The notes under the pieces were generated by a model. It did no database searches, was not told the DNA's origin, and was given only the letters and a program-made list of their open reading frames with translations. DNA of 64,000 nucleotides from Picochlorum sp. SENEW3 (Eukaryota), in the NCBI GenBank assembly GCA_034226945.1, contig CP120458.1:62001-126000 (forward strand). The letters are read 5' to 3'. Shown here piece by piece: positions 2,513 to 36,840 of this stretch. The position numbers and the translations under genes were made by a program. The stretch's first letter is position 1, and each line of letters begins with the position of its first letter.

Positions 2513-2519
2513 ATCTACG

Positions 2520-6985: not shown

Positions 6986-8259
6986 CCATTCTCGCCACAA
7001 GGCTGGAAAATATATATCATATGTGTGTGGTAATATATTGGAATGGAGTGCAAGTCTTATTTTAATTGGAACCGCTGTATGAGCATGAATTGGGCCTTGT
7101 GCCACACATGCAGCATGATGTTTGCATGCACATGACACACTTTCTTACGGGGACGGCAGCACTGCCCTCTCCGCAGCATTCATTTGGCTTTTATACGCAT
7201 CAATATATATTATACTACCGTAATCACTTTGTATTTGCGTCCATAAGGCGGCCATCCTGGTCCTGAAAGTTGGCAGCCTTCATTGAAGTCCTGTGATGGG
7301 AGAGGGAGAGCCTGCCTGGCCATCCCTCTCTTCCACGGGGTTGCTCTGAAATTGACGTTCGTCTCCCATTGAACAGGAAAAACGCGTTTGATGGGAGACC
7401 AACGTCAATCTCCTGTGCCAGATAGGGTATTTTTCCTCATGCCAATCAAATATGATGACAGACCGGCTCCTCTGGCGCGGGTTTTCATCCGCCTAGGCTC
7501 TGAACATCGACATGACCTACATAAAATCGCACCATGCATATACCCTATATCCTGGGGACTCGCCATATGCCCTACACCGGAGTTTACCCGAGCTTGCTGC
7601 AGACAGGGAATTCAAATGCCAGATCGAAAAGTCGGGTCGCCACCCAGGCCTCTATCATATGCTAGCAGGGTGGATTCAATACTTTATCCAAATATATCAC
7701 TGACCATTATTTGCGACGCAGATTATGTCGCGAGCTCCGTATCGGCCGTGCTCCGCGCAACGACCTGCTCGAAATTTGAATTCCTTGCCATGCGCGATTG
7801 CGCGCAGGGGATCTCAACAGTCGCGGATATCGCCTAAAACCATCAATTAAATGTGTAAAAGATACCATCGGATGCTTGAGCACATGATGCTGTGCGGTTC
7901 GTCGCCGTCCGAACCGTGTCATGTCTCCACAAGAAGGCGAGCCAGGGCGGTCTACACTCGATCGAACGCTCCATCGGCTCATAATCAAGCATATTGGAGT
8001 ATTTAAGATGCCAATATGGACGCGAGAGCGGCTCGGGGCGGAGGTCGACAAGGCTGGGTGCCATTCCTGCGGTCAAAAAAGCAGGCTTTCAGAGGGTCAT
8101 GGCGGCATCGAGCCGATTTTCAACCCCGCGTTCTGCACCGATTTGGCATCGTTACAACTCAAATAGTGAATCGGGACGTATTTGACGCATCGAAACGCGC
8201 CATGGTACGCTGTGGACGGCGGAAAACCCTGCTGAAACAGCAGGCCACTCGGCAGTCCC

Positions 8260-11008: not shown

Positions 11009-11238
11009 AGAAATTGCTCAGATGCGGATAAGATAGATGAAAATATATGTTTATACCGATATAGCATCATGGGTAGAGATTGCAACAATGTGTGAGAGAG
11101 CAAAACGCACATGTATAGGACATGCTCAAACTCTCGTTCAAGGTGTAGGTCACCGTGGTGAGCGTTGCAGCACGAAGATTGCCAAAATATCTTTAAAGTG
11201 TAGATTGATTGTACATGCGAAGAATTGTGCACAGTACT

Positions 11239-11312
11239 TGTGTATCCAGTGCGAATGAGATGAGTCAAGATTGCCCCTCGATCGGGGGTTTTTAGGACCC
11301 GGGGCTAATGGG
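11239..11312. repeat. 74-bp exact direct repeat, copy 2 (candidate 5' end of the KDZ element)
   Basis: Identical to 2520..2593; ~230 bp upstream of the KDZ ORF. Confidence 0.85.
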
Positions 11313-11569
11313 TGGGGTAGGGAGCCGGGATAGGGTAGGGTATTTTGGCCGGTCGGGTATTTTAAGCGACCGGTGATCATCGGTCGTCGGTAAATCATGA
11401 TTTAGCTCGGGGTCTTAAATAAGGAGGTCTTAAATAAGACCTCTCCCAACCTCCGCCAAATTACAAAAAAATTACAAAATTAAATGAAATTTACTGTCCA
11501 ATTTAAAGAGGGATTTACTCTGAGAAAACTGTACATAAATTCAGAAAGAATTGTGAAGTGCGCTTCGAA

Positions 11570-13822
11570 ATGGGCGTCTCAAAGTATCTGGAAGAGATAA
11601 GAAAGAAAGAAACTGACTTTCTGGTCGACCTTTACGGGTGTACATTGGGAACTCCTTGTCCCTATTTACAGAACTACTTTATTCAGGAAGAGAAAAAATT
11701 GCTATTCATTGGGCAAAAATTGCATTTTTTATCACACGAATCAAAAGGTTTACCCATGAATTACAACGATTACATGCAAAAGATTTTGACACACATTAAG
11801 AGCAATGAGTTTTCAATCATCGATGGCAAAGCCGGCTCTGGCAAGACAACTTTTTCTGAAGAGATAGCAAATCTGTTCATCTCCCAAGCGGATGAGTCGG
11901 ATGGTTTGTCAATCATAATGACAGCCTCTCCACATCTTGTGGAGGAACGTCTATTCGAATATCAAGATTTTAGGGGTCAAATGTGCCTTGGACCACTCGG
12001 CTACTTACGTCACCTTGCGATCAAATGTGAGAAAAAGAGGTTTGTATTCATTTTACATGAATTCAATCGAATTCCTCATTTTATATCAGTGTTTGGACGC
12101 GCCTTTGAATCAGCATTGCAAGTACATGGGCCCAACCAGATGCATGGTGAGCTTTATCAGAACGAGATGATACAGTTCAGTGTTGTATTGCCATCAAGCG
12201 CTGAAGATTTGTCGAAACAAAGAAAAGCCTTTCCGGAAAATTTGAGAATAATTCTGACAGGTAATAAAGTTGAAGATGGCTACAGAGCCTCAATCTTTGA
12301 CGTGATGCGGGACGACGCCTTATCAAATAATAGGCTTCTAATGTCTAAGATGAAGTTTTTGTACTTAGATCACAAGCCGGCGCCCAGTAAAAAACGAGAG
12401 AGAGATGGGTCATTTGTGGAAATTCCACCAACAGAATTCGTTCCATATAATGTGATTGAAAAGAATTTTCAGTCATTGATAAAAGCAAATCTAAAATCGG
12501 AAGACTCGGACAATGTCTTGACTGCAATGGAAGAATACCTCAAATCAGCCATGAAGAATCAGACAATGAAAATGGAAAATGTCATGCCAGCAAAAAGGAT
12601 TTCTCAGTACTTCATCTATTTGCGTGACAAACAGCCAGAGATTTATCATTCAGTCATGCAAAGGTTCAAATATAAACTAGTTGGTTCGGATTATGCGTAC
12701 CCTATAATGATAATCATATCAGAATCAAAAGAATCAGAAAAAATTTCAGACTTCACTGCTGGCCGAAATTTAGCCTCATGCACAGAATTTGAGGAGTTCC
12801 GAAAAACATTGGAGGAGGAGGAGAAAAACTCTTCGTCAAATCAATCTGAGGAGGTTTCTGGGATTGATTGGTTGAAATACATTCCATGTTTTCCCACCAA
12901 CCACCCTGATCCATTATTCAAGATTGAGGAGCACTTTCAAGCCGTTGGTCCCTCAAAAGTAATTTTTACATCAGAGGAAGCAAAGGCGCAGTTTCCTGAA
13001 GAGTTAAAGAGTAGACATCTTGGAGTGAAATGGTATACTATTGGCAGGAATGACCACGGTCTCATGGAATTTCTTAAACATGCAAAAGATCCCCTCGTTC
13101 TAATCGGTTTTGAGTTGATACCAGCAAATCCATTTGCAACAAATTTGCTTTTAGATGTCCTGCTTCCCTGGTTATTTCATCATGAGAAGAAAACCATACA
13201 AAAAAGCATCAAAATCCGTCATTATATTCAATATGATTCAGGAGCACAGAAAACTGACACTGTGTTGTGCGGAGCATGCAGGCGTGGATGGCATGATTTT
13301 GTCTGCCGCGTTCTTGTCCTGGCTGAAGTGTACAAGATGGACATCAATTGTGAAAATCTAGTCTCATGCATTAAGAATGTAGAGATAGTAGATTTTCTAA
13401 TTGAAAAGATAAGACAGGCAAAAGGTATACCTACCTACCTCAATGAATTGAATGTCTTTGAGAAGGCAGAAACATGCCAAGAGTTCCAGCCAACATACCT
13501 ACTAGCAGAGGCTTTTAAAACTGAAAAAAAAATCGAACGAAATGTAGACGCCGGTTCATTGATTCAGTGTGCAATTCAATTGATTGAGATGGCCTCTATT
13601 TTTGTGTCCTTTGATCAAAAGCATAGTTCAATGTTTTCAGAAATGGTCACACAGGCTTTGTCAATTTTTGACGAGGATATCAAGGACCGCACTCAGTTTG
13701 TATTAAAGGCTTTCACCACTGAGAAGGAGAAATGCGAAACTGCAGACAAGCTCTGTATGTGGGCGGAGAGAGTTAACAAGCAAGATATGTTGCAGATTAT
13801 ACACCAAGTATCTGACATATAA
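11570..13822 (+). CDS. McrB-like AAA+ NTPase (~750 aa) with an uncharacterised C-terminal region
   Basis: Intact intronless ORF. Walker A GKAGSGKT; KKRFVFILHEFNR..SVFG (McrB-type KKYVFIIDEINR..KVFG); FPENLRIILTGN (McrB-type PENxxIIGxMN); DALSNNRL (cf. DxALRRRF). Confidence 0.75.
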   Translation: MGVSKYLEEIRKKETDFLVDLYGCTLGTPCPYLQNYFIQEEKKLLFIGQKLHFLSHESKGLPMNYNDYMQKILTHIKSNEFSIIDGKAGSGKTTFSEEIANLFISQADESDGLSIIMTASPHLVEERLFEYQDFRGQMCLGPLGYLRHLAIKCEKKRFVFILHEFNRIPHFISVFGRAFESALQVHGPNQMHGELYQNEMIQFSVVLPSSAEDLSKQRKAFPENLRIILTGNKVEDGYRASIFDVMRDDALSNNRLLMSKMKFLYLDHKPAPSKKRERDGSFVEIPPTEFVPYNVIEKNFQSLIKANLKSEDSDNVLTAMEEYLKSAMKNQTMKMENVMPAKRISQYFIYLRDKQPEIYHSVMQRFKYKLVGSDYAYPIMIIISESKESEKISDFTAGRNLASCTEFEEFRKTLEEEEKNSSSNQSEEVSGIDWLKYIPCFPTNHPDPLFKIEEHFQAVGPSKVIFTSEEAKAQFPEELKSRHLGVKWYTIGRNDHGLMEFLKHAKDPLVLIGFELIPANPFATNLLLDVLLPWLFHHEKKTIQKSIKIRHYIQYDSGAQKTDTVLCGACRRGWHDFVCRVLVLAEVYKMDINCENLVSCIKNVEIVDFLIEKIRQAKGIPTYLNELNVFEKAETCQEFQPTYLLAEAFKTEKKIERNVDAGSLIQCAIQLIEMASIFVSFDQKHSSMFSEMVTQALSIFDEDIKDRTQFVLKAFTTEKEKCETADKLCMWAERVNKQDMLQIIHQVSDI

Positions 13823-14212
13823 TAATGCCCGTCATTGTATGACGAATGTCTTGAAACATACAAATGCAAGACAGAAGATTGCATTGTCATATTCTCCTGG
13901 AGCCCTGCTTTTGTGGTGTCCAACACCGTTTTCCTATTCAACCAAAATGGGGCGTGTGGTGGTGTGCGGTGCTGGTAATTTCAACAAAACGTTGATTCCA
14001 GACAGGTCTTGTAGTGTCGTGAATGCGTCCATCGAGGGTGGTCAGAGAACCTCCTCGATGTGCACTGAGCAAGACGTGTCCCAGCATGGACATCAAACAG
14101 GTGGTCCCATGAAATGAAACTATACTAGATTTATATATATATATATCACTTGTCAACGAACAGAATGTATCTCATCAAACCCCAGATGATGATAATTCGA
14201 ATATACCCAAAT

Positions 14213-15469
14213 GATATAGATTCTTCCAGCCTTGTGGCGAGAATGGTCACAACGCATGTGGAAAGCCAACAATGTTGCACCGCTGCAACTGAACCAAACT
14301 CTCCAGCTTACTATCTATCCTCACCTTGCACAAGCTCGTCAGGCGGCATAATAGTATTCAACGCTTCTTCCTCTTGATATGTACCAACAGTTTGCATCTG
14401 AGACAACAGTGCATTCAGCTTTTGTTCATGAGATGTCACAACATCTGCATCTCAGCCTTTCTTCCTCAGTTGGCTTCAGGGTGCTAATGATGTCACCAAG
14501 GTTTGATACTGACACGAGAGGCAGTCCTTTCGATGCTTTTTGATATGCATATATGTAGCAGAGAGCTACATGCCTGCAGGAGTGGATTCTAGGAAGATTC
14601 TAGAATGAAGAGATCCCAGAGTGTTCCTCTTGTGACAAGGAGAGATCTTGAATCACTGTTCGACTGTAGATGTTCCTAGTCAGAGTCCATACCAGGGGTT
14701 TCTGCAACACCCAACGACTGTTAGCAGGTTGCCATTTCAGGAATGGCAACTCTTTCATTGTTGGCGATGGTGGAGGGAAGCTTGGCTTTCGTTGTTTCAG
14801 CAGTGGCCCTGTCCCCATCACGTTGCTGCTCTGTCCCCACTACTGACGTCCCGTAGAAACCGCATATCTCAATGTGGTCGTGCAAGCCCCCCGATGCTTC
14901 GTCCATGGCTGGCTCGTCCACTCCAACTGCAGGGGTGTGGTCAACCGCTTCTGCCTCCTCTGCAACAAAGGATCCAAGCCCAAGGATGCACTGTTGCAGG
15001 TACCGGGTCTTCTCTTGCGATGCATCGATTGCATGTTGCGATGTGATCACCAAGGGCGAAGCCATCTCGACCCCCTTTTGGGCATGGGCCCTGTTCCTGG
15101 ACAACTCACCCTCTAGCTGTGCTACTTGAGCCAGCAGGGAGGCACACCTTGACCTCTCTTCTTCGTGCATTCCCTCCATCTTTCTGCTCTTCTCATACCA
15201 CACCTTGACGTCACTGTACAGGGCAGTGATGAGCTCCGGAAAATCTCAGGAAGGCTATTTTTGGCCAAAATTTGGCCATTTTCCAGTCTTGGGTACTTCC
15301 TGGGAGGCTCCTCTTCCCGAGGTTTGAAAAATTTTCTCGGCGGTGCCGCCTTGTTTGCGCGACATGTATCATTACTCACTATATCTACATCGATTTCTTG
15401 GGTATGATCCGAATACGCGCCATCGGTGTCGTCGAACTCTTCTCTGTATGGAAACAAGGACAATCGCAC
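14213..15469 (-). pseudogene. Decayed paralog of the 5729..6985 coiled-coil gene
   Basis: 14213..14550 is a diverged reverse-complement copy of ~6680..7020. Upstream broken ORFs 15122..15469 and 14721..15203 are also coiled-coil-like. Confidence 0.55.
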
Positions 15470-15708: not shown

Positions 15709-15976
15709 TGTAAGAGCGTGCACTGAACGTCCTGAGACTAATGATTAGGTTCGGTCGGCTGACGGTCCACACCGTAGTAGAGACTGCACTATGTTGGTAT
15801 CCTGGTAACACAGGCCTTGATTATAATGTGTTACACGATGGTATATGTAGTAGAATGGTAGATAATCTTATGAGTCCTCGAGTATAGACTCTGGTTCATG
15901 GTTATATTGTGTAATCTTCTTGGTAGATTGATTCCTTAATAAGAGAGTGCCTTGAGGCATCATCTGTGCTGTTACA
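15709..15976 (-). repeat. Gypsy-1 3' LTR
   Basis: Identical to 20936..21203. Confidence 0.97.
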
Positions 15977-15988
15977 GTTCTCCCCCAT

Positions 15989-18900
15989 TTAGTTGGATAC
16001 TCGTCTCGAGTATTGTTTGAGTAACTCGTGTACTTCGTCAACTCCATATCTGAGCTTTAATTCAACTTCGGGAACTGCTTCTTCTTGTGGTGACGATTCA
16101 TGGTACTTCACCTTGTAGATCTGGTTTTGATTCTCATCAGTAATGATGTCTGTGATTTCTCTGATCTTTGGATACGTAGTATTCTTTCTCACTGGGTGAT
16201 CATATCTCTGTAACCACTCCACATTGACAGTAGGGTGCATCTTCTTGACGTATTTATATTCGTCTTTCAATTCAATACTTTCCCAATTCAATCTTACTGC
16301 GTTAGAGCCAATCAACTCTGTAACAACTACAGGGCCAATGTATCTGGAAAACAGCTTTGCTTGCCCTGGTCCCAAGCGTTGTCTAAAGTTCTTTGTACTC
16401 ACATATACTTTATCTCCGACTTGAATATCATGGTCTCTTCTTCGAGCTCCAATGACTTCTTTTTGTCTTCGCTGAGCTTCTTCCAAATGTGCTTGCGCCA
16501 TTTGTATAGCTGATTGAATCCTCAATAATATTTCATTCACATCCTCTCTGTCTGATACCATTAATTGTGATGCGTTTGCAAATGGGTATACTGGATGTCT
16601 TCCATAATTCAAGAAGAATGGTGTAGTCTGAGTACTGGTACTCACTGCACTGTTCAATGCAAATTCCACCAATGGTAAGTATTTCTCCCAATCCTGAATA
16701 TTGTTCGCACAGTATGCTCTCAACATATCAATGATACTTCTGTTTGCTCTCTCAGTCTGTCCATCTGATTGTGGATGAAAGGCTGTAGTATGAGACAACT
16801 TTGTCCCAAACACGTCCATCATTGCATGATAGAATTCTCCAGTAAATGTAGATGCTCGATCAGTTATGATCCTTTTCGGCATTCCATGTAACTTGAATAT
16901 CGTATCGATAAACGCTTCTACTATTCTTTTAGTAGATAATCCCTCTTTCTGTATAGGTACTGTCCTGACCATCTTTGATAATCTGTCAACAAAAACCAGA
17001 ATGCTGTCATGCTTCGTTTCCTCATTCTTAGGAAATCCTGAAACCAAATCCATAGTAATTTCTTCCCATCTGTACTTTGGTGTGGGTAATGGTTGAGCCT
17101 TGCCATAAGGCTTCTGGTTAATATTCTTCGATTTACTGCATACTTCACAGTGTCGTACCACATCCTCAACGTCCTGTCTCATATTTGTCCAATAAAAGAA
17201 TGTTTGCATGGCTTGCAATAGCCTGTCTCTTCCAATATGTCCAAAAGCGTTATGTATTTCTGTAATTAACTCAGTCCTCAACTGCGATGTATTCTGTGAT
17301 ACTGCCAATATGACCTGAGGAAGCTTATTAGGCTGCACGATTCTGAGTAATCCATGTTCAAAGATGACTTGATCAGGGTCAATCTTATCATGTTGCTCCA
17401 GAACTCTGCTCCTAAAATCTCCATTCTTAGTCAATACATATTCTCGCAAATATTTTGTCCATGCTTGATCATCATACGTCGGCGTGACTTGACTTGCCAC
17501 GTTCTGCAATATGAAAGGAACGGCATTTGGATCTTCCAATGACACTCCAATACTGTGGCATAGTTCTGTTCTATACCAATCTGGTTCCATATCTTCAGCA
17601 AATTCTTGTTTGTCCATAATGTGCATAATTGTCACATCGATAAGCTTTCCATTTTCGAAAGTTTGTAAGGTATTCACTCTCTCCCCCATTCTAGAAAGAG
17701 CGTCCGCGACTCTGTTCTGTTTACCAGTAATGTAGGAAATAACCAAGCCTTGCCCATACTCAGCTAGTACTTCCAACCAACCCAGTTCTTTTCTACCAGG
17801 TGTCTTCAAGGTTCTCAAATGAGTAACTGCGCGGTTATCTGTATATAAAGTTACTCCACCTTTAGCTCCAAGTAAGTAATGTCGCCATTCTCGTAGCGCT
17901 GCGACCAATGCCAAAATTTCCTTTTCAAACACTTGATACTTTCGCTGTGTGTCTCCAAATTTCTTTGATAAGAACTCAATAGGCTGTAAACCTTTTCCAA
18001 AATCTTGCATAAGCACTGCTCCTAGTGCAACATCTGATGCATCTGTGTGCACCACATACAGCAATTTCGGATCTGCAATCCTCAATGTTGGTGCTGAAGT
18101 CAGCTTCAACTTGATGTTCTGAAATTCTCGATCACATTCGTCCGTCCAGACAAATGGTACGTCATCTTTAAGCAATTCTGACAAGTGACAAACTTGAGCG
18201 GAGTAATCCCTGATGAAACGACGATAGTAATTCGCCAATCCCAGAAATGATCGTAATGTAGGGATATTATGAGGCACTGGAAAGTTCTGTACAGCTTCTA
18301 TCTTCTTTGGGTTTACCCTGATACCGTCCGCTGTAACTATTTGTCCTAAGAATAACACTTCATCCTGAAAGAATGAGCACTTCTTCTCTTGCAAATACAA
18401 TTCATGTTCCTTCAATGTTTGGAAAATCCGATCCAGATGCTCTTTATGCTCTTTCCTTGTACGCGAAAATACTAATATATCGTCCAAATAAACGACAACA
18501 AATCCAGCGTCAATATGCTTACGTAGTATACTGTTCATATTCCGTTGAAATGCAGATGGTGCGTTTGTCAAACCAAACGGCAATACCTTCCATTGATAAC
18601 TTCCATCTGGCGTTCTGAAACTTGTCTTGTGTACGTCCTTGTCCTTAATTCTGAATTGCCAATAACCTGATGCTAGATCCAAGGACGAGAAGTATTTGGC
18701 TCCTCGTAGCCTCTTCAATAATGCCTGTATGTTCGGCAAGGGAAATTTGTCTTCCACTGTAATCTTGTTTAATGCTCGATAATCCACACACATGCGTAAT
18801 GATCCGTCTTTCTTCTTCACAAATAATACTTGGCTTCCATAAGGTGACTTTGAAGGTTCTATTAAACCTCTCTTCAATAATTCCTTGACTTCGTGATCCA

Positions 18901-19834
18901 ACTGGTCTTGTTCTTTAGGTGCCAGCAACCTCATTCTTGCACACGGGATCTTTGATCCTTCTTCCGTTCGTATTTCGACATCATATTTACCTCTGTATTT
19001 GGGTAGAGTCGTAGGTGTGCCATTAATAAAGAGACTCTGATATTTTCTCTTCAGGTCTTCCATTTCTCTCGCGACGTATCTGGTAGACGTCAATGTTTCT
19101 TCTGTTGCTGCTTCTTGCACAACACATAGATAGACTTCATCTTCTTTCTCATTCAGCCAATTCTCATATCCAGTTTCGATCTGTTCCATTGTAATCAGGT
19201 TGTTCAGGAATCCGTCGTGTGAGATATTCCGATCTCCAATTTGTATAACTCTGGCTTCTGGTTCGCCTTTCTTGTTCATTTTAGTATAACTCACTTCTGA
19301 GGGACTCACAACTTTCTCTTCACCTTGCTTGCATAACCAATCATAACCCAGGATAACATCATAGCTTTGCAAGTCAATAACCAACAACGATAACATCTCT
19401 CGCACATGCGGTGTGCCTCCATTTTTCCTGGCCTTTTGCTGCACCGTAGGTAACATAATTTCCACTGTAGCTTCCTGATTAACGGGTTCTTCTCCATGAA
19501 TACTAATAATCTTTGACGAACGTCGACTTTCCTTGACAACCAAATCAAGCAAATCCACCAGTCCTTTTGATATAAAGCTGCGACTTGCTCCTGTATCCAC
19601 TAAGATTCGGACGTCTGTTCCGTTAATCTTGCCCATAACAATTGGTAAATGACCTTGTTTTACTTGCTTTGCAGATGTGTTTTCGATTAACCTGTGTACC
19701 GCTTCATGATCTAACGCGTTGATAACTTCTTGCCAATCAAATTCCTCACCAGCTTGTTTCTGGGGACTCTGAGGTGTGTCATCACCTACTGGCTCATGGC
19801 AGAGGTCCCTTCGTCGTTTTCCTGATCCTCGATG
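15989..19834 (-). CDS. pol: Gypsy-1 Pol (protease, RT, RNase H, integrase, degenerate chromodomain-like tail)
   Basis: LVDTGAS, YLDD, TDAS, HHCC (HNAFGH..CEVC), D-D-E, RYIGP. The frame is open from 19834 and overlaps the end of gag in the -1 frame. Confidence 0.95.
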   Translation of the reverse strand, partial: HRGSGKRRRDLCHEPVGDDTPQSPQKQAGEEFDWQEVINALDHEAVHRLIENTSAKQVKQGHLPIVMGKINGTDVRILVDTGASRSFISKGLVDLLDLVVKESRRSSKIISIHGEEPVNQEATVEIMLPTVQQKARKNGGTPHVREMLSLLVIDLQSYDVILGYDWLCKQGEEKVVSPSEVSYTKMNKKGEPEARVIQIGDRNISHDGFLNNLITMEQIETGYENWLNEKEDEVYLCVVQEAATEETLTSTRYVAREMEDLKRKYQSLFINGTPTTLPKYRGKYDVEIRTEEGSKIPCARMRLLAPKEQDQLDHEVKELLKRGLIEPSKSPYGSQVLFVKKKDGSLRMCVDYRALNKITVEDKFPLPNIQALLKRLRGAKYFSSLDLASGYWQFRIKDKDVHKTSFRTPDGSYQWKVLPFGLTNAPSAFQRNMNSILRKHIDAGFVVVYLDDILVFSRTRKEHKEHLDRIFQTLKEHELYLQEKKCSFFQDEVLFLGQIVTADGIRVNPKKIEAVQNFPVPHNIPTLRSFLGLANYYRRFIRDYSAQVCHLSELLKDDVPFVWTDECDREFQNIKLKLTSAPTLRIADPKLLYVVHTDASDVALGAVLMQDFGKGLQPIEFLSKKFGDTQRKYQVFEKEILALVAALREWRHYLLGAKGGVTLYTDNRAVTHLRTLKTPGRKELGWLEVLAEYGQGLVISYITGKQNRVADALSRMGERVNTLQTFENGKLIDVTIMHIMDKQEFAEDMEPDWYRTELCHSIGVSLEDPNAVPFILQNVASQVTPTYDDQAWTKYLREYVLTKNGDFRSRVLEQHDKIDPDQVIFEHGLLRIVQPNKLPQVILAVSQNTSQLRTELITEIHNAFGHIGRDRLLQAMQTFFYWTNMRQDVEDVVRHCEVCSKSKNINQKPYGKAQPLPTPKYRWEEITMDLVSGFPKNEETKHDSILVFVDRLSKMVRTVPIQKEGLSTKRIVEAFIDTIFKLHGMPKRIITDRASTFTGEFYHAMMDVFGTKLSHTTAFHPQSDGQTERANRSIIDMLRAYCANNIQDWEKYLPLVEFALNSAVSTSTQTTPFFLNYGRHPVYPFANASQLMVSDREDVNEILLRIQSAIQMAQAHLEEAQRRQKEVIGARRRDHDIQVGDKVYVSTKNFRQRLGPGQAKLFSRYIGPVVVTELIGSNAVRLNWESIELKDEYKYVKKMHPTVNVEWLQRYDHPVRKNTTYPKIREITDIITDENQNQIYKVKYHESSPQEEAVPEVELKLRYGVDEVHELLKQYSRRVSN

Positions 19835-20802
19835 TTATTAAATCGGTGATTGTTACCTTTCTTCTTCTGATGATATTCTTCTTCGTTATCATCATGCTTG
19901 TTGTTGTTGTTCTTATTCTGATGATGAGGCTTTCCTTTCCATTTTCCTTTTCCTTTAAATCCATTCCGATTTCCTTGGTTATATCCATATTGATTATTGC
20001 GATTACCTTGATTAGAGTACCGCATAAGGTTGACTTGTTCGTTCGGACCTTGCGACCTTCCTTCTAAGGAGATGTGACTGTCCACTTCCCCAATCCTTGA
20101 TAGTAAATATTGCCTTAATTCCTGGTACATCTGTTCTGGTGTACTCGCAGAGAAGTCATAATTACGCTTCTGAAAGAATTTTCCAACATGCGGGTAAACC
20201 TTTCCATACAGCTTTGGTGTGAAAACTCCCAAATGCTTCTGTCCAATGATAGCTGAGCCACAATATCTAACCACACGGTCGTATGTTTGTTCGAACCGAT
20301 GGTAGAATGCTACAATTCCTTCATTAGCACCTTGTTTCATTGCTGAGTACTGTTGATACAGCATTGCGGCATAGCCAACCCCCATTTGGTCTCTGAGAAA
20401 TATCTCCTTGGCTTCTTCCCAAGTTACAAAGGATCCTGAATCCGTCCTGAGTAGCATACCAATCCGTGGAGGAACAGCATTAAGGAATAATTGCGTATAA
20501 ACCGTTTGAGTAGTCATTTCCTGTGGAAGTATGAATATTTGTGCTGCCAACAGATGTTCTACAGACAATAGCCATTCTGCCTGAGAGGTATGTGCTGGTT
20601 GTTTTTCCCAACGATATTCTCGAGTCAAAGTTGCTGCCAGTTCCTTATATTTAAAGGTCAATGCTGCCTGCTGTGAGGTCAGTGAGGATATTCCACCCAC
20701 TGGCACTGAGGGCTCTGAACCATTTTCCGAGTGAAAATCAGCGAATTCTTCACCATTTCCTTCTTCTTCTGCGCGCCTTCGCGCTGCTCTTGTTGTAGCC
20801 AT
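19786..20802 (-). CDS. gag: Gypsy-1 Gag
   Basis: 338-aa ORF upstream of pol; MKQGANEGIVAFYHRF retrotransposon gag motif; basic, Asn-rich C-terminus. Confidence 0.88.
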   Translation of the reverse strand: MATTRAARRRAEEEGNGEEFADFHSENGSEPSVPVGGISSLTSQQAALTFKYKELAATLTREYRWEKQPAHTSQAEWLLSVEHLLAAQIFILPQEMTTQTVYTQLFLNAVPPRIGMLLRTDSGSFVTWEEAKEIFLRDQMGVGYAAMLYQQYSAMKQGANEGIVAFYHRFEQTYDRVVRYCGSAIIGQKHLGVFTPKLYGKVYPHVGKFFQKRNYDFSASTPEQMYQELRQYLLSRIGEVDSHISLEGRSQGPNEQVNLMRYSNQGNRNNQYGYNQGNRNGFKGKGKWKGKPHHQNKNNNNKHDDNEEEYHQKKKGNNHRFNNIEDQENDEGTSAMSQ

Positions 20803-20935
20803 GTCAATTATTGCTGAGGTCTTGATGCAAAGAGGAGCTACCGCACTGTCCCAGTCCGCGTCACGTCAATACCGTGAGATCTCGATTCCTCACGCCAAAT
20901 CCACGGGATTTATACGAAATAGAGCTGAAACCACT

Positions 20936-21203
20936 TGTAAGAGCGTGCACTGAACGTCCTGAGACTAATGATTAGGTTCGGTCGGCTGACGGTCCACACC
21001 GTAGTAGAGACTGCACTATGTTGGTATCCTGGTAACACAGGCCTTGATTATAATGTGTTACACGATGGTATATGTAGTAGAATGGTAGATAATCTTATGA
21101 GTCCTCGAGTATAGACTCTGGTTCATGGTTATATTGTGTAATCTTCTTGGTAGATTGATTCCTTAATAAGAGAGTGCCTTGAGGCATCATCTGTGCTGTT
21201 ACA
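20936..21203 (-). repeat. Gypsy-1 5' LTR
   Basis: Identical to 15709..15976. Confidence 0.97.
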
Positions 21204-21497: not shown

Positions 21498-24400
21498 ATG
21501 TCATCTAGACCTGCACCAGGTATTTTTCCAGTTCCTCAACCTCGGACTGCTTTCGGGAACGCGGTCAACAAGGAGGGAATCGAGCATGAAGATCCAAACA
21601 CCCCACTAATTCTATTGCAAGAAAATTTTGATAACTCAGCATCGCATGGAGCATCTCCAATTTTCTCACGTGAACACACGATTGTGGACAAGAGGAGATT
21701 TGATAAGTATCCATTTAACGCAAAATATTGTCGAATATATCTCACAGAAGACCCTCAAATATCGAAAATGCATTTCGAAGGATGCCAGGTACTGGAGTAT
21801 TCGGATGACGGGCACGGCATTCGGATTAAACAGAAACATAAAGAGGAATATTATGATATAAGGAATTCAGTTGTTAACTCCCTCATGTTTAATTTCACTG
21901 CACGACCTGGTGGGTATCATAAGCATGGCACTGGTTGGAAAAATTCCATGACTTATTTTGGTCCTCTGTCTCTTATACTAACTTCAAGTGTGGATCCAAA
22001 AACAGGTATTCAAGAGACTTGTGTTGGGCTCTTTGGGCCTGCAATCAAGATTGAAGATCAAATTGACAAAATGCAAAACATTGCCTTCGTATTTGACAAG
22101 ATCAACGAATTTGTGGACACATATGAAAGCACGAGTGATCGGACCTATGAAAAATACATAAAGTTTCTTCAGGAGAATCACAGCCCATGGGTAGCGGATT
22201 GGGAACACCATGGTTACATTTTTGAGCAAGGAGGCAGAGAGGGAAGTCACCACAGCTTGTACATCCCATTCACTGTTCTCCTCGAAAAATCCCTGTCCAT
22301 TGGAAACATCAGCCCGAATGAGGAACAATGGAACGAAACAGGATTGAGCATCTACACATTCTTATGGAAGGATGAGGAGCACACACAAAAATACCTTACA
22401 AAAGCATTTGCTTTCTCTCCCTGCAAGTTCAAAATCAAGAATAGCAAAATATTCTATTATTTTGAAAAGAAAAGAAAGAGTGAACGTGAAGAGCATGATG
22501 TACGTCATTGTTTGCAAGATCAATCATTTATTCATTAAGTATTAAGGATGCATATTTCTGTTTGTTTGTAGTTGCAAGAGAACCTTGAGAGAAGTTATCG
22601 ATTCATGCATTCTGACATTGAAAGGGTATTGAGAAATGAAATACCTGTCGAGAATAATGAAGAGGGACTCAAAGCGTTGCCTTACTTAAGGTTCTATGAA
22701 AGACATTTCACGAAGAGTGGTGGTAGGGACGGAAATTTCATGGAGATATTTGTACAGGTGAGTGTTTCTGTTGCACATAAGTCACTTAAAATTGCACTAA
22801 GTGTCTACATGGCATATATGTATCTACGTAGGATAACCTGCTCAACCACGACCCTGTAAGTGGCCAGGAGGAAATTGTGGACGTTCCAAATGAAAACAAA
22901 AAAACCAAAAAAACCAAAAAAAACAAAAAAAGCAACGCTTTGATAAGGTGTGTACCATGAAAATTATTAATATTGTTATTAATAATCGATTCAAAAACCT
23001 CTTCGATGTCCACTATTCATGAATCCTTTTCTTTGACGGGTATGTAGTTATATTAAATCGAGGAAGAAAAAATATCCAACCGCCGAGTTGACGCTACCAA
23101 ACGCCTCCTCTGCAGATGAGAAGAGTTTTTTGGAGATGCGGTCACTCGCAGTTCGATTAAACGAAGTGATAATAAAAGAAGGAAAGGAAAAACCGGGCAC
23201 CAAAATGCAACAGGAGTATAAAACATGGCCTTCCATATCTTTTTACAAGGGAAACAGGCTAATCCAAAGAAAGCAATTATCTGAGGTATCTATCAAAGAG
23301 GGTGGGACCACATGGAGTCTCGAGCAAATTTGGGACGCTGTACGCATTTAAAATGTTCTCAAGTTGTGGCGACGATACAATCATATTTTGGTTTGTACTT
23401 CAGGTTTTGAGGGAATTCTACGAGGTAGGAAGAAAAAAACGCACGACTCACGGAGCAAACGAAGACTTCTTTGGTATTGGTACCTGGGCAGGTTACAATT
23501 CAGGAGGACTTCGCGCACCATCTGTCGAAGGAGATGCTTTGGCTAAACAAATTGAAAACAAAAAGACTCTTATCCAGAATCAAATCAAGACAGGAAAGGA
23601 GAACACAGCGCTGCTATATAAAGCTTTCAAAAAGCTTGTGGAAGTGGGCAACACAGAGGGTGCACGATTGGACTTCGATTGTGAAGCCTTCGTAAAGCAA
23701 GTGCACGATTGGCCAGAAGGAAACCAGGTACCAGGTACCACATGGAAGAGAGTGCATTTGTTGCATGTGCCGAACGATTCAACTAATGCTGCCCCTCTTT
23801 TCACACACCAGCTTCGCTTACTGGAACTTTTTGGCTTTTTCAGGTATGATATTTGCATTCATGACAAGCAGATGATGAAAGATTTGAACAGGAAACAAAT
23901 CTTGCAGATTTGATGCAATTCTGTTGGACATAAACGGAGAGAATATACACGATATTAAAGATCCAAAAGTACGATTTAGCAAAGCTGATGAATATTGCAA
24001 GCAAATCTTGATAGAAAATGCCAATCTTGTCTGGAAGAACGAATTTGCCCCCAAGAAATTCAGGACATGGTACCTGAAGCAATGGCAAGGGGAAGCACAG
24101 CTGGACAAACTCCGTAAGGAATGGGAGGCAGGAGAGTGTCAGAATTGCGAAGGTCAGCGCCACCCACCAGAGGAGTGTCCCATCCATCTGCTGAGAGAGC
24201 ACGGCCTCGAGGAGGCTCAGGAGCAGGGAAGCGGGTCCTGTGCCTTGACAGCAATTGGATACCATCTCAGGTGCGTTTTGTTTTGCCACTGCGTGTCAGA
24301 TTCAGCGTGTAAGATGCCGTTGAAGGTTTGTTTAAATCATACCACATCAAAACACAAGAGGTCATGTTATCCCACCTTCCCCGTGCAGGATGATGTCAGT

Positions 24401-27400
24401 CTCCGTTGTCTGTAGAGCCTTGCCTAAGGGCCCAGAGATGGTGAAAGCTCTGCGGAAAGCCACTGTGCGTCATCTTCGGCAAAACCGTGACAAATATCAA
24501 GAAGGATTCGTGAAAGACAAGCAGTTGCTGAACATGGTGAGAGACAAGGCTTTCAAAAAATTGGACTTGAAAAAACTCAGTGAATCAGTCTTATCACACC
24601 TTGAAGGCCACGTGGATTGGGTTGTTAATGACTGCTTCTTGCAGGCGTTACTGGACGTCTTGACTCAAACTTTGAAACAGACATGCAAAATACGCATCTA
24701 CAACATGTGTTGCGCAGAAAAGCATGAGAAGCCATTCCAGGAGATTGTCATGGAGTCGAGTGGTTCTGGCAGTGTCATCACTTTTCCAGTGTTGTATTGC
24801 GGCGACCAGCGCTACGCTGCAGCAAAACCACCCAGTCCACCTGAAGGGAGATATTACTTGTCGCAAAGTGCTCAAGGAATTCAACCAAAGCCTATCGATG
24901 AGACAGATGCCATGTCTGACTTGGTTGCCGACCTGCTTTTAGGGTGTGCTGAATGTAAAGGTCAGTACCACATGCCAGAGAAGTGTCCCATCCATCTGCT
25001 GAGAGAGCACGGCCTCGAGGAGGCTCAGGAGCAGGGAAGCGGGTCCTGTGCCTTGACAGCAATTGGATACCATCTCAGGTGCGTTTTGTTTTGCCACTGC
25101 GTGTCAGATTCAGCGTGTAAGATGCCGTTGAAGGTTTGTTTAAATCATACCACATCAAAACACAAGAGGTCATGTTATCCCACCTTCCCCATGCAGGATG
25201 ATGTCAGTCTCCGTTGTCTGTAGAGCCTTGCCTAAGGGCCCAGAGATGGTGAAAGCTCTGCGGAAAGCCACTGTGCGTCATCTTCGGCAAAACCGTGACA
25301 AATATCAAGAAGGATTCGTGAAAGACAAGCAGTTGCTGAACATGGTGAGAGACAAGGCTTTCAAAAAATTGGACTTGGAAAAACTCAGTGAATCAGTCTT
25401 ATCACACCTTGAAGGCCACGTGGATTGGGTTGTTAATGACTGCTTCTTGCAGGCGTTACTGGACGTCTTGACTCAAACTTTGAAACAGACATGCAAAATA
25501 CGCATCTACAACATGTGTTGCGCAGAAAAGCATGAGAAGCCATTCCAGGAGATTGTCATGGAGTCGAGTGGTTCTGGCAGTGTCATCACTTTTCCAGTGT
25601 TGTATTGCGGCGACCAGCGCTACGCTGCAGCAAAACCACCCAGTCCACCTGAAGGGAGATATTACTTGTCGCAAAGTGCTCAAGGAATTCAACCAAAGCC
25701 TATCGATGAGACAGATGCCATGTCTGACTTGGTTGCCGACCTGCTTTTAGGGTGTGCTGAATGTAAAGGTCAGTACCACATGCCAGAGAAGTGTCCCATC
25801 CATCTGCTGAGAGAGCACGGCCTCGAGGAGGCTCAGGAGCAGGGAAGCGGGTCCTGTGCCTTGACAGCAATTGGATACCATCTCAGGTGCGTTTTGTTTT
25901 GCCACTGCGTGTCAGATTCAGCGTGTAAGATGCCGTTGAAGGTTTGTTTAAATCATACCACATCAAAACACAAGAGGTCATGTTATCCCACCTTCCCCGT
26001 GCAGGATGATGTCAGTCTCCGTTGTCTGTAGAGCCTTGCCTAAGGGCCCAGAGATGGTGAAAGCTCTGCGGAAAGCCACTGTGCGTCATCTTCGGCAAAA
26101 CCGTGACAAATATCAAGAAGGATTCGTGAAAGACAAGCAGTTGCTGAACATGGTGAGAGACAAGGCTTTCAAAAAATTGGACTTGAAAAAACTCAGTGAA
26201 TCAGTCTTATCACACCTTGAAGGCCACGTGGATTGGGTTGTTAATGACTGCTTCTTGCAGGCGTTACTGGACGTCTTGACTCAAACTTTGAAACAGACAT
26301 GCAAAATACGCATCTACAACATGTGTTGCGCAGAAAAGCATGAGAAGCCATTCCAGGAGATTGTCATGGAGTCGAGTGGTTCTGGCAGTGTCATCACTTT
26401 TCCAGTGTTGTATTGCGGCGACCAGCGCTACGCTGCAGCAAAACCACCCAGTCCACCTGAAGGGAGATATTACTTGTCGCAAAGTGCTCAAGGAATTCAA
26501 CCAAAGCCTATCGATGAGACAGATGCCATGTCTGACTTGGTTGCCGACCTGCTTTTAGGGTGTGCTGAATGTAAAGGTCAGTACCACATGCCAGAGAAGT
26601 GTCCCATCCATCTGCTGAGAGAGCACGGCCTCGAGGAGGCTCAGGAGCAGGGAAGCGGGTCCTGTGCCTTGACAGCAATTGGATACCATCTCAGGTGCGT
26701 TTTGTTTTGCCACTGCGTGTGAGATTCAGCGTGTAAGATGCCGTTGAAGGTTTGTTTAAATCATACCACATCAAAACACAAGAGGTCATCTAATCATGGC
26801 CACGTCTGGGGTTTGTAGACGGTATAGAGTACCTGTAATGGTTCACCCTATGGTGTGAACATCCTTAAGAACTTATTACAGTATCAATGTTACCATCTGT
26901 GTTACTTTTTGCAGGAGAATGGTCAGAGATGAACCTGTTGTCGATCAATGGCTGAAAAACCTACAAGGTCTGAACCTGGATTCCATGATTGGCAAACTTT
27001 CAGAATTATTTGAAGTCGTGCATATGAAAATTTTCACCAGGCATTACATCTTGCAATCAAGCGGAGAGCCTGCTTATGCGGACGCATTGCCGATAAAGTC
27101 TGTACCAGAGAACCCTGTCATGGCTGCAGGACAAAATAATTGGATTTGTCTTCCACTAGTCAGTCGCAACTTCCAGTATTCACCTTGTAAGGTGGTAGAT
27201 AACAAGTCATTCACACAATCATTCTATTATTCACTGTCCCATGGTGAAGACAATTTCCTTAAGGGTAAACTCATAGCTGTTGAGGCATCCAAGGATTTTC
27301 AATCTGCCATCCTGAACATGATGCAGAAGACGCTTCCACAGAAGTGCCAAATTTGTTTATTACCAAAGGAATCTGACCACAGTAGCGATGTTTGCTGGCA

Positions 27401-28269
27401 GCAGTGTTTGCAATATCTTGGTGTGGAAATAACTGGTGGGAAGAAGGAATCCTTTGAAAACGCTCTCTACTGCATCTTCAGGTATGGCAAAATTACTGAC
27501 CACCGCACTTAATATTTCCCCTAGATTTATTTTATTTATTGCATAAATGATGTATTTATATTGCAGGCAAATGGGGCTGGGTGGCATGCTGGGGACCAGT
27601 GATCATGGTTCAGAATTGTTCAAAAAAGCTGCTAATAAGTATACAGCAAACCAGAAAAAGGAACTCAAACGAAAAGTTTCCAGAAAAGTTGAGGACGACA
27701 AACGAAATAAAATATTGGAATATGCTGAGTTTCTGACATATATCCTACAAGAGAACTGTTGTATACATGTATACAAGCAATCCTCTACAAAGGTGTTAAA
27801 GAAGGAAAATGAATACCGGTCAGTGAATGCTATCAAAAGCAAGAAGACGATAGTGTTTCCCTGCGTGCAAGAAGGAGATATGTTCAGAGTCTTTCAACCT
27901 ATGTCAGGATTGCACGCAGATAGTCCAGAGTTTTGTTTTGTTCAGCACTCTGGAGGAGACAGACGTAGCCTTAAGAAGATATGGCGAGTCTGTGACGATC
28001 AAAAAGATTATATATCAACCATTAACCGATTATATGGTGCACTCAAGGAGGATGGACAAGACTTCTCAAACGATAGATCTCCAAACACCCATCCTAACAA
28101 AAAGCATAAGTCTTTTGTGACAGCCACGACTAGACCCGTTGATAAAAAGTTTCAGCAAGATCAAAATCTCCGAAAGGCACTTCGTGATGTTTTGGCTACG
28201 TACAAAGCAGATTCGCCTGAAAATAATCATTTGGTGGAGCAGATTGAAGTGCTATTAGATAGGTATTAA
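21498..28269 (+). CDS. Multi-exon MORC-like GHKL ATPase fused to ~5 zinc-knuckle + OTU-like modules
   Basis: GHKL boxes QENFDNS, YSDDGHG, GYHKHGTGWKNS and ETCVGLFG (cf. MORC ELxDN, DDGxG, GxYGNGFKTS, SIGLLS); S5-like FYKGNRLI. GT-AG introns join the ORF pieces in frame, e.g. 22500-22571, 23844-23907, 24271-24415, 27481-27566. Confidence 0.7.
24167..26789 (+). repeat. Intragenic tandem array of an 808-bp unit (~3.25 copies): 663-bp exon + 145-bp intron
   Basis: ORF starts 24390, 25198 and 26006 are 808 bp apart; units differ by only a few SNPs. Confidence 0.95.
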
Positions 28270-33031: not shown

Positions 33032-33142
33032 GGCGAATCTTAAAAACGATTATATGATAGTAATCACCGATAATATTTATCTGTCGCAATGCTTTGTAGC
33101 GTACGGAGATTTTACGCGGGATTCGAAATTTGAACTCCCTAT

Positions 33143-33300
33143 CCGGGAGGCCCTCATTTGGGCCGATTTTGGCTTTTGGGGAAATGAGGGATTCCCGGCT
33201 GTAGCTGGGAGGCCCTCATTTGGGGGGCTCAAAATGGCCGATTTTGGAGGGTCCAAATCCGGGCCTGCGAGATCTATCTGGGAGGCCCGGATCGTATGTC
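33143..33300. repeat. 158-bp transposon terminus, copy 2
   Basis: Same length as and highly similar to 2355..2512; abuts the Gypsy-2 LTR. Confidence 0.75.
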
Positions 33301-33528
33301 TGTTAGCTATTCATTTGCAATAGCTTGAGCTCAGACTGCTTGGGCAGGAACTCAATGATATAGGTTCAGAACACGTGTGTGCGTTCTATCACTTTAGATG
33401 TTAGTACAAGTTACAATAGTTACTTGCTTATATATCTTCGTTGACTGTTATTGTCGTCGCAATGCTTATATACCTTGGCAACCATCATGAGTAAATGGCT
33501 GTTCTAATTTAGATGATTTAAGACGTAA

Positions 33529-34313
33529 GGGCGGATCAACTCGATTGTGGGTTTTCTATTAGTGACTTCCAAAAAATCCTATGGGGGAGCGGGGCGTCTT
33601 TTAATAATTGATAATTTGATAAAGGTGCCAATCTGGCATCCAATCGCCTCTTAAAACCTCTGAATCAATGCGTATGCATATCCTAGTGCACAAACATAAC
33701 AAACATGGTCGCTTGGCTGATCCTGTGTGGAGGAATCTTGCCTGGATCACTGTCCATAACATGTCCTCTGTACGAGCCTTGTGCCCCAAAGCCCCGGCGA
33801 ATTTTGCGAGGTTCATCATCCCCAAATACTCTCATGATACATCAAGATAGACAGCATCTGCATTTGGCATTCGATTTCTCGCCAGATACGAGAGAGATGT
33901 CGACACAGTGCAAAATTCAAGCATCCTCTGACCATGTCCTTTCCATTCAATGTGATTTCAGCTGTTTCCTTCGCCTCAAACCCAATTTGTTGGTTCAATA
34001 TCTCAAAAAGGCGTCCAATATGTTTTATGCTTGGAATATCCTTGGAAATGGACCCACTTCGGGTTGTCTCTGTGACAGATCTGAAGCTGAGGTGCAGATC
34101 CAGGCTCTGCCGTATTCTATCATTATTGAGGCTTGCCCCGGGTACCTAATGACATTTGTCGGCGTGTAGGATGTTTGAATGCATCGCAAGGGTTGGTTAA
34201 AGCCCACGTAGAGTGGATTTGGCTCAAATTATCACTTTACAAAATCAGGTCCAATTCTGAGAAAATCCTATGGGCGGGGCTAATAGAAAACCCACAATCG
34301 AGTTGATCCGCCC
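33529..34313. mobile_element. PIF/Harbinger (Tourist-like) non-autonomous element, 785 bp
   Basis: Perfect 34-bp TIR GGGCGGATCAACTCGATTGTGGGTTTTCTATTAG; TAA TSD (33526..33528, 34314..34316); removing it restores the LTR end AGACGTAACA. Confidence 0.93.
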
Positions 34314-34497
34314 TAACATTCTTCCCTAACTTCAAATGCAAACGTCCACGCTTTGCTAAAGACAATGAGAAGTGACAATCCACAGGAAAAGAAAACCTTG
34401 TTGGAAAAAGAAGACCATATGGATGTCTGGAATGAATTTTTAATTGCTGTGCATTCTTCCTATGCAACAGAGAATGATGTCCACACTCATTCAAAAC

Positions 34498-36438
34498 AAA
34501 AACATTCTCGCGGGCCCCTTTTTTTGACGTGAGTCTCATGACACTTCAATCGACATAGGGATGTTTGGATGGAAAGGGCGGATGAACCGCCCTTTCAGTT
34601 GGCCAGGTTTGTCCAAGCCCCATGCGCTGGGAACATGCATGTACTGTAACATTCCTGTGGTGAGACTGAAACCTTGTATGGTCCTTTGTATGGATTTCCA
34701 AGCGTTCTGGGTTTCTTTGACAACCGTCCTAATTCACAGGATCCTAGAAATTCCTTTGCACTACAGCAGTATAGACTGATCACTGTATCAACTGGCATTG
34801 CATAAATGCAGTTGTCGACACACCCACAATCTTCATTTGCGACTTGCCATGGCCTGCTATCGATACAAATCTCCCAAATCCGTGTATCGGCTGAGCAGAC
34901 CTGCGTTTCCATTCTTGGACTCACATCCCCCATTTGCAAAATATCTCTCAAGTAGGAGGGAAAAGCTACCTATGTTACTGCTTTCATATTCGATATCCTC
35001 TCGTACATGCGCTGCATCCACATTGATTCTGTCTAAAATCAGAATACACGCGAATCTCGATGGCATGCTTGATCCTCATAATCAAATGTCACAGTTCGAG
35101 AGAACCACATTAATTCTATTGCTACGAGGTTTGGATTGTTGCCCCCGTGCCAATAATGAGCAGCTATATCGGCCATCAATCCTCTCATTCACAACTTCAT
35201 ATACATATGAGTCTGTGGCTAAGGCATCGCGCATCATGGCCACAGCAGCACCTCACTGAGAGCCATAAGAAAGCAATATGGTGACATGCAAGCATTTTAG
35301 CGGACAGCAGAAACGAGCTTGCTATGGACCGACAGAAGTCCGAAGGACGTATACTCTGGTGATCAACAAGTGCATGATACGGCTGCGATATATTCGTACC
35401 ACAGGAATTGAAGGAGATACTGACGCCCTGACCTTCATGGGGATTTGACTGGCGTAGATGGCCTCATGACCATCAGCACTTGCAAATAATCCGCGGAAAA
35501 TCGTACTGCTCACGGACATTACTTGTCACAACTGTACATATGTTTCCATGATGCTTGGTATTGAAGTGTTGGCTGCTTGTTTTGTGGCGTAGTCGTCACT
35601 GTTCCATCTGACATATGACTTGGCTGCATAAGCATTACAGGTAGCATCTGATTTGGCCTTTATGACATTTCCACATGGAAGTGTCAGGATAAATGACATT
35701 CAGGAGCAAATATGCACCAAAACATAGCAGATTGCTGTAGATTATGCTTCCACCCGGGCGATGGAACCTGGGGCAGTTAGCCTTGAGCAGTAACAGCCTT
35801 GGCCCAAACTCAGGTGTCATGAATCGACGAATTTCGCCTATGACCATGCCAATTTGACCGGACGGTTGGACACTCTATCTATGAATAAGAGCATCCCATC
35901 ACAGGCTGATGTTGACCGGGAACATTACAATTCGCGTGTAGCACGATATGCTTCCCTTAGCTGCCCTCTGATACGCGTCAGGCATCGACAGAGAATCCAG
36001 CAATCCATTTCTTCTTGACTATCAAAGCACTATAGATCAATTAAAAGCCAATACCCTGGCACAGAGAGCAACCAGAGGTGCGCACGGACATTCGACAGTT
36101 AATGGTTGGGCACATTTGGTCGCTTTGCGGCGGCGTCTAGCCACCCGGGCTTGCCATCCACCCCTATAATGTGCATCTTACTCTTTTCTATTTAATGCAC
36201 TGTCCCAAGGGTACTCGGTTGACACGTATGAAAAGTGGCACGCTTTTTTTCCCGATTTTTTCACGAATTCGTCGCTCGCGAACGCCACGTCACAAGGCAC
36301 TTCTTGGCTTCTCTGGTCCAGTCTTATAATGTATTAATAGTCAGTTTTATGTGCACAGTGTAATTTATCCTGCTGCAGGGAAGCGGGAATCGCGTTTGTG
36401 GTTACATCTATATAAAGTTATTCCCCCCTGTAGGCCCG
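34498..36438. repeat. ~1.9-kb dispersed repeat, copy 2, inside Gypsy-2
   Basis: Colinear with 3512..5445. Confidence 0.85.
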
Positions 36439-36840
36439 AATAGATAAAAACTTCAACTGGAGAATACCTGTAAAGGATGGATAACAAGGGAGAGAGATGA
36501 GCCATTGACCAACAAAAGAAGGCGTCCCCTCTGATGTGACAAGGCAACCAATCATCCAAAATCATGACAGAAAAGAAAAGTGAACGGGGCCAGCGTTCAT
36601 ATGTTAGTGTCGACACAGAGAGATAGTTGCAACAGAGATCAGAAAGAAGACTCAATTCGAGTTTCAGATGCATTTAATAGTAGTACTCAACAAAGGAGCA
36701 TGATCTCAGAATAATAATAAGAAGCGCTTTCTTTTTTTTCGGAGTTCAGAAACTAACTCGATTTAATGACGTCTTAGAGAACTGTAGTCTCTTGAAGTTG
36801 TTGCATTCTTATGCGTTGATGAATAAAAGATTCCATGAAC

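Follow-up and report, generated by a model that had tools for sequence, protein, structure and literature searches.

In animals, plants and apicomplexans, MORC ATPases act in transposon silencing and chromatin compaction, and it is the tail that determines where they act. The eukaryotic proteins MORC2, MORC3 and MORC4 combine a GHKL ATPase domain with an S5 module. The gene described here, from Picochlorum sp. SENEW3 (GenBank assembly GCA_034226945.1), lies on the forward strand at 21498-28269 of a 64,000-nucleotide (nt) stretch of contig CP120458.1 (positions 62,001 to 126,000), referred to below as the window, and most likely encodes a divergent MORC-type ATPase fused to an array of zinc-knuckle modules. 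Compared with the eukaryotic MORCs, the predicted protein has no match at the Pfam level and no detected S5 domain, and it carries a conserved insertion of ∼25 residues after the N-box helix. Neither a CW finger nor a coiled coil was found, and the tail is made up instead of modules with CCHC knuckles.

A second related group consists of bacterial and viral proteins with a HATPase_c_3 domain (PF13589), which belong to the prokaryotic MORC/paraMORC class (Iyer et al. 2008, PMC2292703). These proteins share the three ATP-binding boxes with the window protein, but they are intron-less, ∼200-450 amino acids (aa) or more in length and tied to restriction systems, whereas the gene described here is an 11-exon eukaryotic gene for 1,894 aa with unrelated C-terminal modules. 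Membership of the MORC family proper requires an S5-fold domain after the GHKL domain, which supplies a conserved basic residue (PMC2292703, PMC3417536), and a MORC-specific signature motif separates MORCs from paraMORCs (PMC2292703). In the window protein, an S5-type domain would be expected in the region encoded by exons 3-5. Among the papers listed in full-text searches outside subscription journals, judged by their titles and opening lines, none was seen to describe a fusion of a MORC or GHKL protein to OTU or zinc-knuckle modules. The MORC-type GHKL engine is of a known kind; what is new is the tail, and how narrow the family is. The label of OTU domain, considered below, is not earned by the modules.

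Gene structure and transcription

When the 11 exons are joined by their coordinates, they form a single open frame of 5,685 nt (1,894 codons) that runs from the ATG at 21498 to the stop codon at 28267-28269, the only stop in the frame. The ten introns are all of the GT..AG type and are 64-220 nt long. The ends of this model are exactly the gene boundaries that had been set in a first-pass annotation made from the sequence alone, and all sequence strings quoted in that annotation were found where it had placed them. Codon usage and GC content at third codon positions do not separate the gene from either host genes or transposons.

Removal of intron 1 is validated by a relative, P0001, because the open reading frame (ORF) of that protein runs uninterrupted across the junction between exons 1 and 2. 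Over its whole length, exon 2 aligns with the C-terminal tail of P0001, which has no interruption, with a Smith-Waterman score of 80, which none of 2,000 shuffles reached (maximum 47); a BLASTP comparison of exon 2 with P0001 gave no match. P0001 ends in VQV at the point where exon 2 ends in VQ and is followed by the GT of intron 2 (22755-22760), and this suggests that the position of intron 2 is conserved in the organism from which P0001 was derived.

Parts of the window are matched at 95-99% likeness in X1 and X2, two marine metatranscriptome runs of one study. In RNA contigs of both runs the 118-nt intron of the repeated unit has been spliced out at its GT..AG borders. The spliced joint is absent from the contigs of two DNA runs, X3 and X4, which contain 97% and 92% of the sampled words and whose contigs total ∼13 Mb. 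Together with the marine RNA runs, these figures point to a marine eukaryote with a small genome as the host. An X1 RNA contig passes from unit to unit, in the order body, knuckle, Cys loop, splice and next body. Confirmation of the splicing by RNA, which the first-pass annotation had proposed, was thus obtained for the unit intron but not for the connection of the ATPase exons to the modules.

The RNA contigs fall as separate pieces on exon 1, on exon 5 (23630-23801) and on the repeat units, and most exons are uncovered. Such a distribution would also be expected from two genes, a short one for a MORC-like ATPase and a separate downstream one for the module array, the continuous frame then being fortuitous or that of an alternative isoform, and it agrees with this that P0001 and a second relative, P0003, are known only as fragments of 392 aa and 346 aa. 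Two genes are nonetheless unlikely, as ten consecutive canonical introns preserve one stop-free frame. In addition, aa 488-783 include no Met, which leaves the 295 codons preceding exon 7 free of ATG, and therefore exons 5-6 offer no start for a separate module gene. The first knuckle and Cys loop are in exon 6, upstream of the first Met that such a gene could use. Because one frame is kept open across ten canonical introns and aa 488-783 lack a Met, fusion of the ATPase and the repeated zinc-knuckle modules in one gene is the most likely arrangement predicted from the sequence.

Exon 3 includes an A-rich 9-10-nt microsatellite (22893-22935) that encodes a Lys/Thr/Asn-rich linker, and reads seem to be cut at this point.

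A divergent GHKL ATPase at the N-terminus

The three ATP-binding boxes are conserved between the window protein and its two relatives. E42, D45 and N46 of the N box, D104-G105-H106-G107 of the G1 box, G144-T145-G146 of the G2 box and N149 are invariant in all three sequences, and an alignment of the three was used as a profile, designated A1. The reference set consisted of 13 viral proteins, all of which score 33.9-78.4 bits with PF13589 (of 14 loci, L031 was left out as a duplicate of L027). Comparison of A1 with these HATPase_c_3 proteins using hhalign gave a match of 94.85% (E-value 4.8e-8) over 87 columns that include all three boxes, and a control comparison of A1 with an alignment of OTU domains gave 0.6%. 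In the alignment, E42 and N46 of the E-x-x-x-N motif fall on the ELIDN stretch of the 13 proteins, and the G1 and G2 boxes, which in the GHKL superfamily take the forms D-x-G-x-G and G-x-x-G-x-G, fall on their counterparts. In the ESM Atlas, the clusters nearest to exon 1 are HATPase_c_3 clusters (score 0.96), and in a second look MORC2, MORC3 and MORC4 occupied the top 10.

The GHKL boxes that the first-pass annotation had recognised exceed chance. The further comparison that it had suggested, of the N-terminal part with HATPase_c_3, succeeded with the family profile but not with one sequence, since hhalign gave only 0.3% when the single spliced N-terminal 735 aa was set against full-length viral GHKL proteins. 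A plain hidden Markov model (HMM) of the viral GHKL proteins likewise did not place exon 1 among the eight best-scoring ORFs of the window. Among the profile comparisons made, the GHKL relationship is detectable only with the three-sequence profile. Searches of PDB sequences returned two unrelated entries for exon 1 (E-value 0.076 or worse) and two unrelated entries for A1, searches of PHROGs and PADLOC with A1 gave nothing below an E-value of 0.06, and P0001 has no match to PF13589. AlphaFold2 models were poor, with predicted local distance difference test (pLDDT) values of 37.3 and 38.4, the latter for a module exon; Foldseek found no match to either at E-values up to 0.001, and models of this quality do not inform on the fold. 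Taken together, the comparisons support a predicted GHKL ATPase of MORC type, very divergent in sequence, in which the catalytic Glu, the Mg-binding Asn and the two glycine boxes are all retained.

A recently amplified array of modules

The C-terminal part of the predicted protein can be shown to comprise five modules. Modules 1-3 correspond to a tandem DNA repeat of 808 bp, in which 690 bp are coding and 118 bp are intron, so that each copy adds 230 aa in frame. The first-pass annotation had given the unit as 221 aa and had missed the DNA repeat; Tandem Repeats Finder also missed it, the longest period covered by that program being 500. Units 2 and 3 differ in 2 of 808 bases (99.75% identity). 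Unit 1 differs from unit 3 in 14 bases, all located in 24135-24173 and making up 14 of the first 41 bases of the unit, and the 233 bases of the partial fourth unit are identical bar 1.

The array is not an artefact of assembly, because the joint between units is present in DNA contigs of X3 and X4 and k-mer depth is raised, reaching 170-262 across the unit in X3 compared with 69 in single-copy flank. This exon-plus-intron unit was amplified very recently, and its copies are expressed with correct splicing. The locus provides a clean and datable case of the growth of a protein domain array, in which an intron-containing 808-bp unit was copied in frame.

In X4, one contig departs from the module at 24585 into 255 letters of unrelated sequence. 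Possible causes are a structural variant in the X4 sample, a second junction, or a partial paralogue at another genomic site.

Modules 4 and 5 are much more diverged. The first-pass annotation had listed both as further, diverged modules, and this is weakly supported: module 5 matches module 1 over 51 residues (BLASTP E-value 0.005), but the body of module 4 has no significant similarity to module 1 in the same comparison.

Zinc knuckles

Exact matches to C-x2-C-x4-H-x4-C were found four times in the protein, beginning at aa 738, 968, 1198 and 1428. These are all four occurrences of the pattern in the window, counted over 55,965 residues of six-frame ORFs of at least 50 aa, and the repeated knuckles described in the first-pass annotation are borne out by this count. 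The knuckles of exons 7-9 start at 24945, 25753 and 26561. In unit 1 the ligand residues are kept despite the diverged codons that surround them, while the knuckle of module 5 is degenerate, with the spacing C-x2-C-x7-H-x4-C. The four exact knuckles have the same spacing as the retroviral-type CCHC zinc knuckle, zf-CCHC in Pfam. They differ from it in lacking the usual Gly-His pair, and Pfam does not call them.

Are the modules OTU domains?

The first-pass annotation had read each module as following the pattern of OTU deubiquitinases, with the Cys kept and the catalytic His replaced by Arg. OTU deubiquitinases (PF02338) and the modules have in common a Gly-rich loop whose final residue, Cys, begins a helix, followed by a helix of the form L-R-x-x-hydrophobic-x-x-hydrophobic-x-x-N. 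The modules differ in being split by an intron, in having a zinc knuckle in front and in a C-terminal half that cannot be aligned. An OTU profile was constructed from 21 viral loci with GDGNCLFRA, of which 17 were scanned with Pfam (L003, L012, L015 and L016 were dropped as same-length duplicates); PF02338 was found above cut-off in 13 of the 17, and 12 distinct domains were aligned.

Spliced module 1 scores 9.7 bits with this profile, and none of 1,000 shuffles reaches that score (best 4.2); the best score over all 3,000 shuffles made is 7.4. The E-value of 5.6e-5 is for a single comparison with one chosen family and would be ∼1 over the 24,736 families of Pfam. When 579 six-frame ORFs of the window were scored, the spliced module (9.7) and three unit ORFs (7.0-7.4) ranked above all others, the next best scoring 4.6. 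The match is confined to the GSGSC Cys loop and the helix that follows it, LRKATVRHLRQNRDKY, and hhalign aligned the module with the OTU domains over the same part, at 55% (E-value 1.2e-4, 56 columns comprising the Cys loop and next helix).

The part that follows, W..LQAL..IRIYN..VLYCGDQRY, scores -1.1 bits, a value reached by 884 of 2,000 shuffles. Of the proposed OTU pattern, only the loop and the next helix beat chance; this C-terminal half does not. The residue at the proposed position of the OTU His is Arg in modules 1-3; however, a replacement of the catalytic His by Arg depends on the alignment of this half, which scores at chance, and the claim falls with it. Modules 4 and 5 score -0.7 and 3.8 bits with the OTU profile, values reached by 190 and 27 of 1,000 shuffles, respectively, and so lie at or close to chance. 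The comparison of the unit with OTU domains, which the first-pass annotation had put forward as a check, came out divided, as the hhalign match dropped to 2.5% when module 5 was added to the query profile and to 7.8% when module 4 was added. PF02338 (cut-off 23.3 bits) gave no match on any exon at E-values up to 1-5 in scans of exons taken singly, which placed the Cys loop and the body of a module in separate queries.

A pseudo-deubiquitinase array, in which each module would have an OTU fold that retains the Cys and has lost the catalytic His, so that the array would bind ubiquitin on a MORC clamp, agrees with the hhalign match and with the rank of the module and unit ORFs in the window. A lead in the same direction, and of that level only, is a cluster with 19% OTU members at rank 3 in the ESM Atlas (score 0.83). 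This reading is tentative and well short of even odds, given that the half with the proposed W and His motifs is at chance, that the match weakens on addition of modules 4 and 5, that no Pfam OTU match was obtained, and that both the Asp and the Asn of GDGNC are Ser in the GSGSC loop. Judged from the sequence, the likeness of the module to OTU domains is weak, and the chance that the module adopts an OTU fold may be put at roughly one in three.

The GSGSC loop is present in four of the five modules, the Cys standing at a predicted helix start in a Gly/Ser-rich context, and several His residues occur in the module body. Active cysteine peptidases, deubiquitinases or related enzymes, in which a non-canonical general base replaces the OTU His, would account for both features. 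They are very improbable, since no alignable OTU His motif was found in the module, the Cys position is occupied by Ser in module 5, and no protease family was matched. A search of PDB sequences with the module returned eight unrelated entries (E-value 0.11 or worse). Should the module prove to be OTU-like, a single polypeptide would join a DNA clamp with ubiquitin signalling; should it not, the module would represent a new fold family.

Relatives, distribution and genomic setting

A HMMER search over 1.84 billion representative proteins returned three sequences at E-values up to 0.001, of which two are real relatives. P0001 (392-aa fragment, 38% identity, E-value 9e-42) and P0003 (346-aa fragment, 31% identity, E-value 6e-16) are both singletons from Logan assemblies. 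The third, P0002, is a 1,137-aa tandem-repeat protein that was matched in 20 short stretches, and it was set aside as spurious. With two relatives among 1.84 billion representatives, the gene would add a MORC-type engine that is too divergent for family libraries. A homologue search with profile A1 recovered only P0003 among 2,699 candidates, and no homologue of the module scored among 974 longer and 332 similar-length candidates. No related locus was found in metagenome contigs, exons 4 and 5 matched only unrelated entries among PDB sequences, and a search of Rfam gave 0 matches.

The window carries intact Ty3/gypsy elements and a KDZ-like DNA transposon together with nuclear genes (GAPDH, UGGT, ACAD10-like, TKL-type kinase and CemA-family). 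The long terminal repeats (LTRs) of one Ty3/gypsy element, at 15709-15976 and 20936-21203, are 268 nt long and 100% identical, and the second ends 294 bp before the ATG of the gene. Its insertion was probably very recent, because the LTRs are identical and the gag and pol frames are open.

This transposon-dense segment, which also includes a second LTR element and the KDZ-like element bounded by terminal inverted repeats, and the extremely narrow distribution of the family are what would be expected of cargo carried by a virus or transposon, for example a decoy directed against MORC-type silencing in the host. Such an origin is highly improbable. No repeats that enclose the gene as a unit were found in the window, neither the ATPase profile nor the module brought up a relative in 2.9 million viral contigs, and the catalytic residues of the ATPase are kept, which would not be expected of a passive decoy. 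Its ten spliceosomal introns, together with this lack of relatives in viruses, make a resident cellular gene more probable than a viral or transposon decoy.

Predicted mode of action

The interpretation that we favour, with a probability of roughly 0.5, is of one resident, expressed nuclear gene in which a divergent MORC-type ATPase is combined with an array of five modules, three of them from a recent amplification and four with an exact knuckle, and whose product would act as clamp, tether and adaptor. By analogy with other GHKL/MORC enzymes, a clamp would form when ATP binding closes a dimer of the N-terminal domains. The array of knuckles may tether this clamp to nucleic acid, after the usual role of CCHC knuckles, and additional units would then confer higher avidity. 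The globular body of each module may be an adaptor that binds a partner; it may be a degenerate papain/OTU-like domain, and is not a demonstrated deubiquitinase. A fast-evolving role in genome surveillance, suggested by the transposon-dense island and the adjacent insertion with identical LTRs, would be the weakest and a speculative step.

Several results weigh against this interpretation. The window protein has no Pfam match at E-values up to 10 in scans of single exons, and P0003 matches PF13589 in the G1-G2 region (E-value 1.5e-4) at 22.2 bits, under the curated cut-off of 25 bits. The Asp of the DNSxDA stretch, kept in 13 of 13 reference proteins, is Ser, Cys or His in this ATPase family. 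No S5 domain was recognised by Pfam or by comparison with PDB sequences for exons 2-5 taken singly, and zf-CCHC gave no Pfam match at E-values up to 1-5, again exon by exon. No RNA contig bridging the ATPase exons and the module exons was found among low-depth contigs that leave most exons uncovered, a depth at which the lack of such a contig does not show that a fusion transcript is absent. Finally, nucleic-acid binding, dimerisation and a link to transposons are inferred steps of this interpretation.

A more specific version is doubtful. It would make the protein an undescribed MORC architecture, an ATP-gated clamp with an array of nucleic-acid-binding knuckles and degenerate, catalytically silent OTU-like modules that would read ubiquitin or ubiquitin-like proteins, the array still expanding by unequal crossing-over, and would assign it to fast-evolving genome defence within the transposon island.

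Table 1. Position and predicted content of features in and next to the gene. Positions are those of the window.
Feature	Position	Strand	Description
Intact Ty3/gypsy retrotransposon	15709..21203	-	Reverse transcriptase, RNase H, integrase and gag domains; open gag and pol frames
Exon 1	21498-22499	+	334 aa; divergent GHKL/HATPase_c_3-type ATPase domain (predicted); N box aa 42-46, G1 box aa 104-107, G2 box aa 144-149
Intron 1	22500-22571	+	Removal validated by relative P0001
Exon 2	22572-22757	+	62 aa; ATPase module continues; aligned to P0001 tail
Exons 3-5	22832-22947, 23048-23285, 23404-23843	+	Lysine-rich linker and unassigned middle region; frame-keeping GT..AG introns
Exon 6	23908-24270	+	Unique segment, first CCHC knuckle (24137-24178), first GSGSC Cys-loop helix (Cys codon 24239-24241)
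Tandem array	24133..26790	+	3.29 units; starts at 24133, 24941, 25749 and (partial) 26557; spacing of 808 three times
118-nt intron in unit	24271-24388, 25079-25196, 25887-26004	+	Separates Cys-loop helix from module body
Exons 7-9	24389-25078, 25197-25886, 26005-26694	+	Three near-identical 230-aa modules; order body, linker, CCHC knuckle, Cys-loop helix
Exon 10	26915-27481	+	Diverged module 4 body, degenerate knuckle near 27343, Cys-less loop
Exon 11	27567-28269	+	Diverged module 5 body, C-terminal tail, stop codon

Other features of the window

In both marine metatranscriptome runs, coverage of the stretch peaks in the LTR region of the Ty3/gypsy element upstream of the gene (depth 36 and 26).

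A segment of ∼7.7 kb at 6761-14472 lies between 250-nt inverted repeats that are 83-92% complementary. It contains an ORF with a weak match to KDZ transposases (8497-10113, reverse strand) and a 754-aa ORF with a weak match to nSTAND3 NTPases (11558-13822, forward strand), and it is possibly a DNA transposon that carries cargo.

The second LTR retrotransposon is at 33429-43028 on the reverse strand, with 100-nt terminal matches at 99% and a pol gene at 36841-40857. A fragment of the same family, 91-97% identical to the 3′ part of this element (33139-36070), lies ∼31 kb away at 2351-5076. An ORF for an N6/N4 DNA methylase (43048-44475, reverse strand; PF01555, E-value 1.8e-42) starts 20 bp past the end of the second LTR element.

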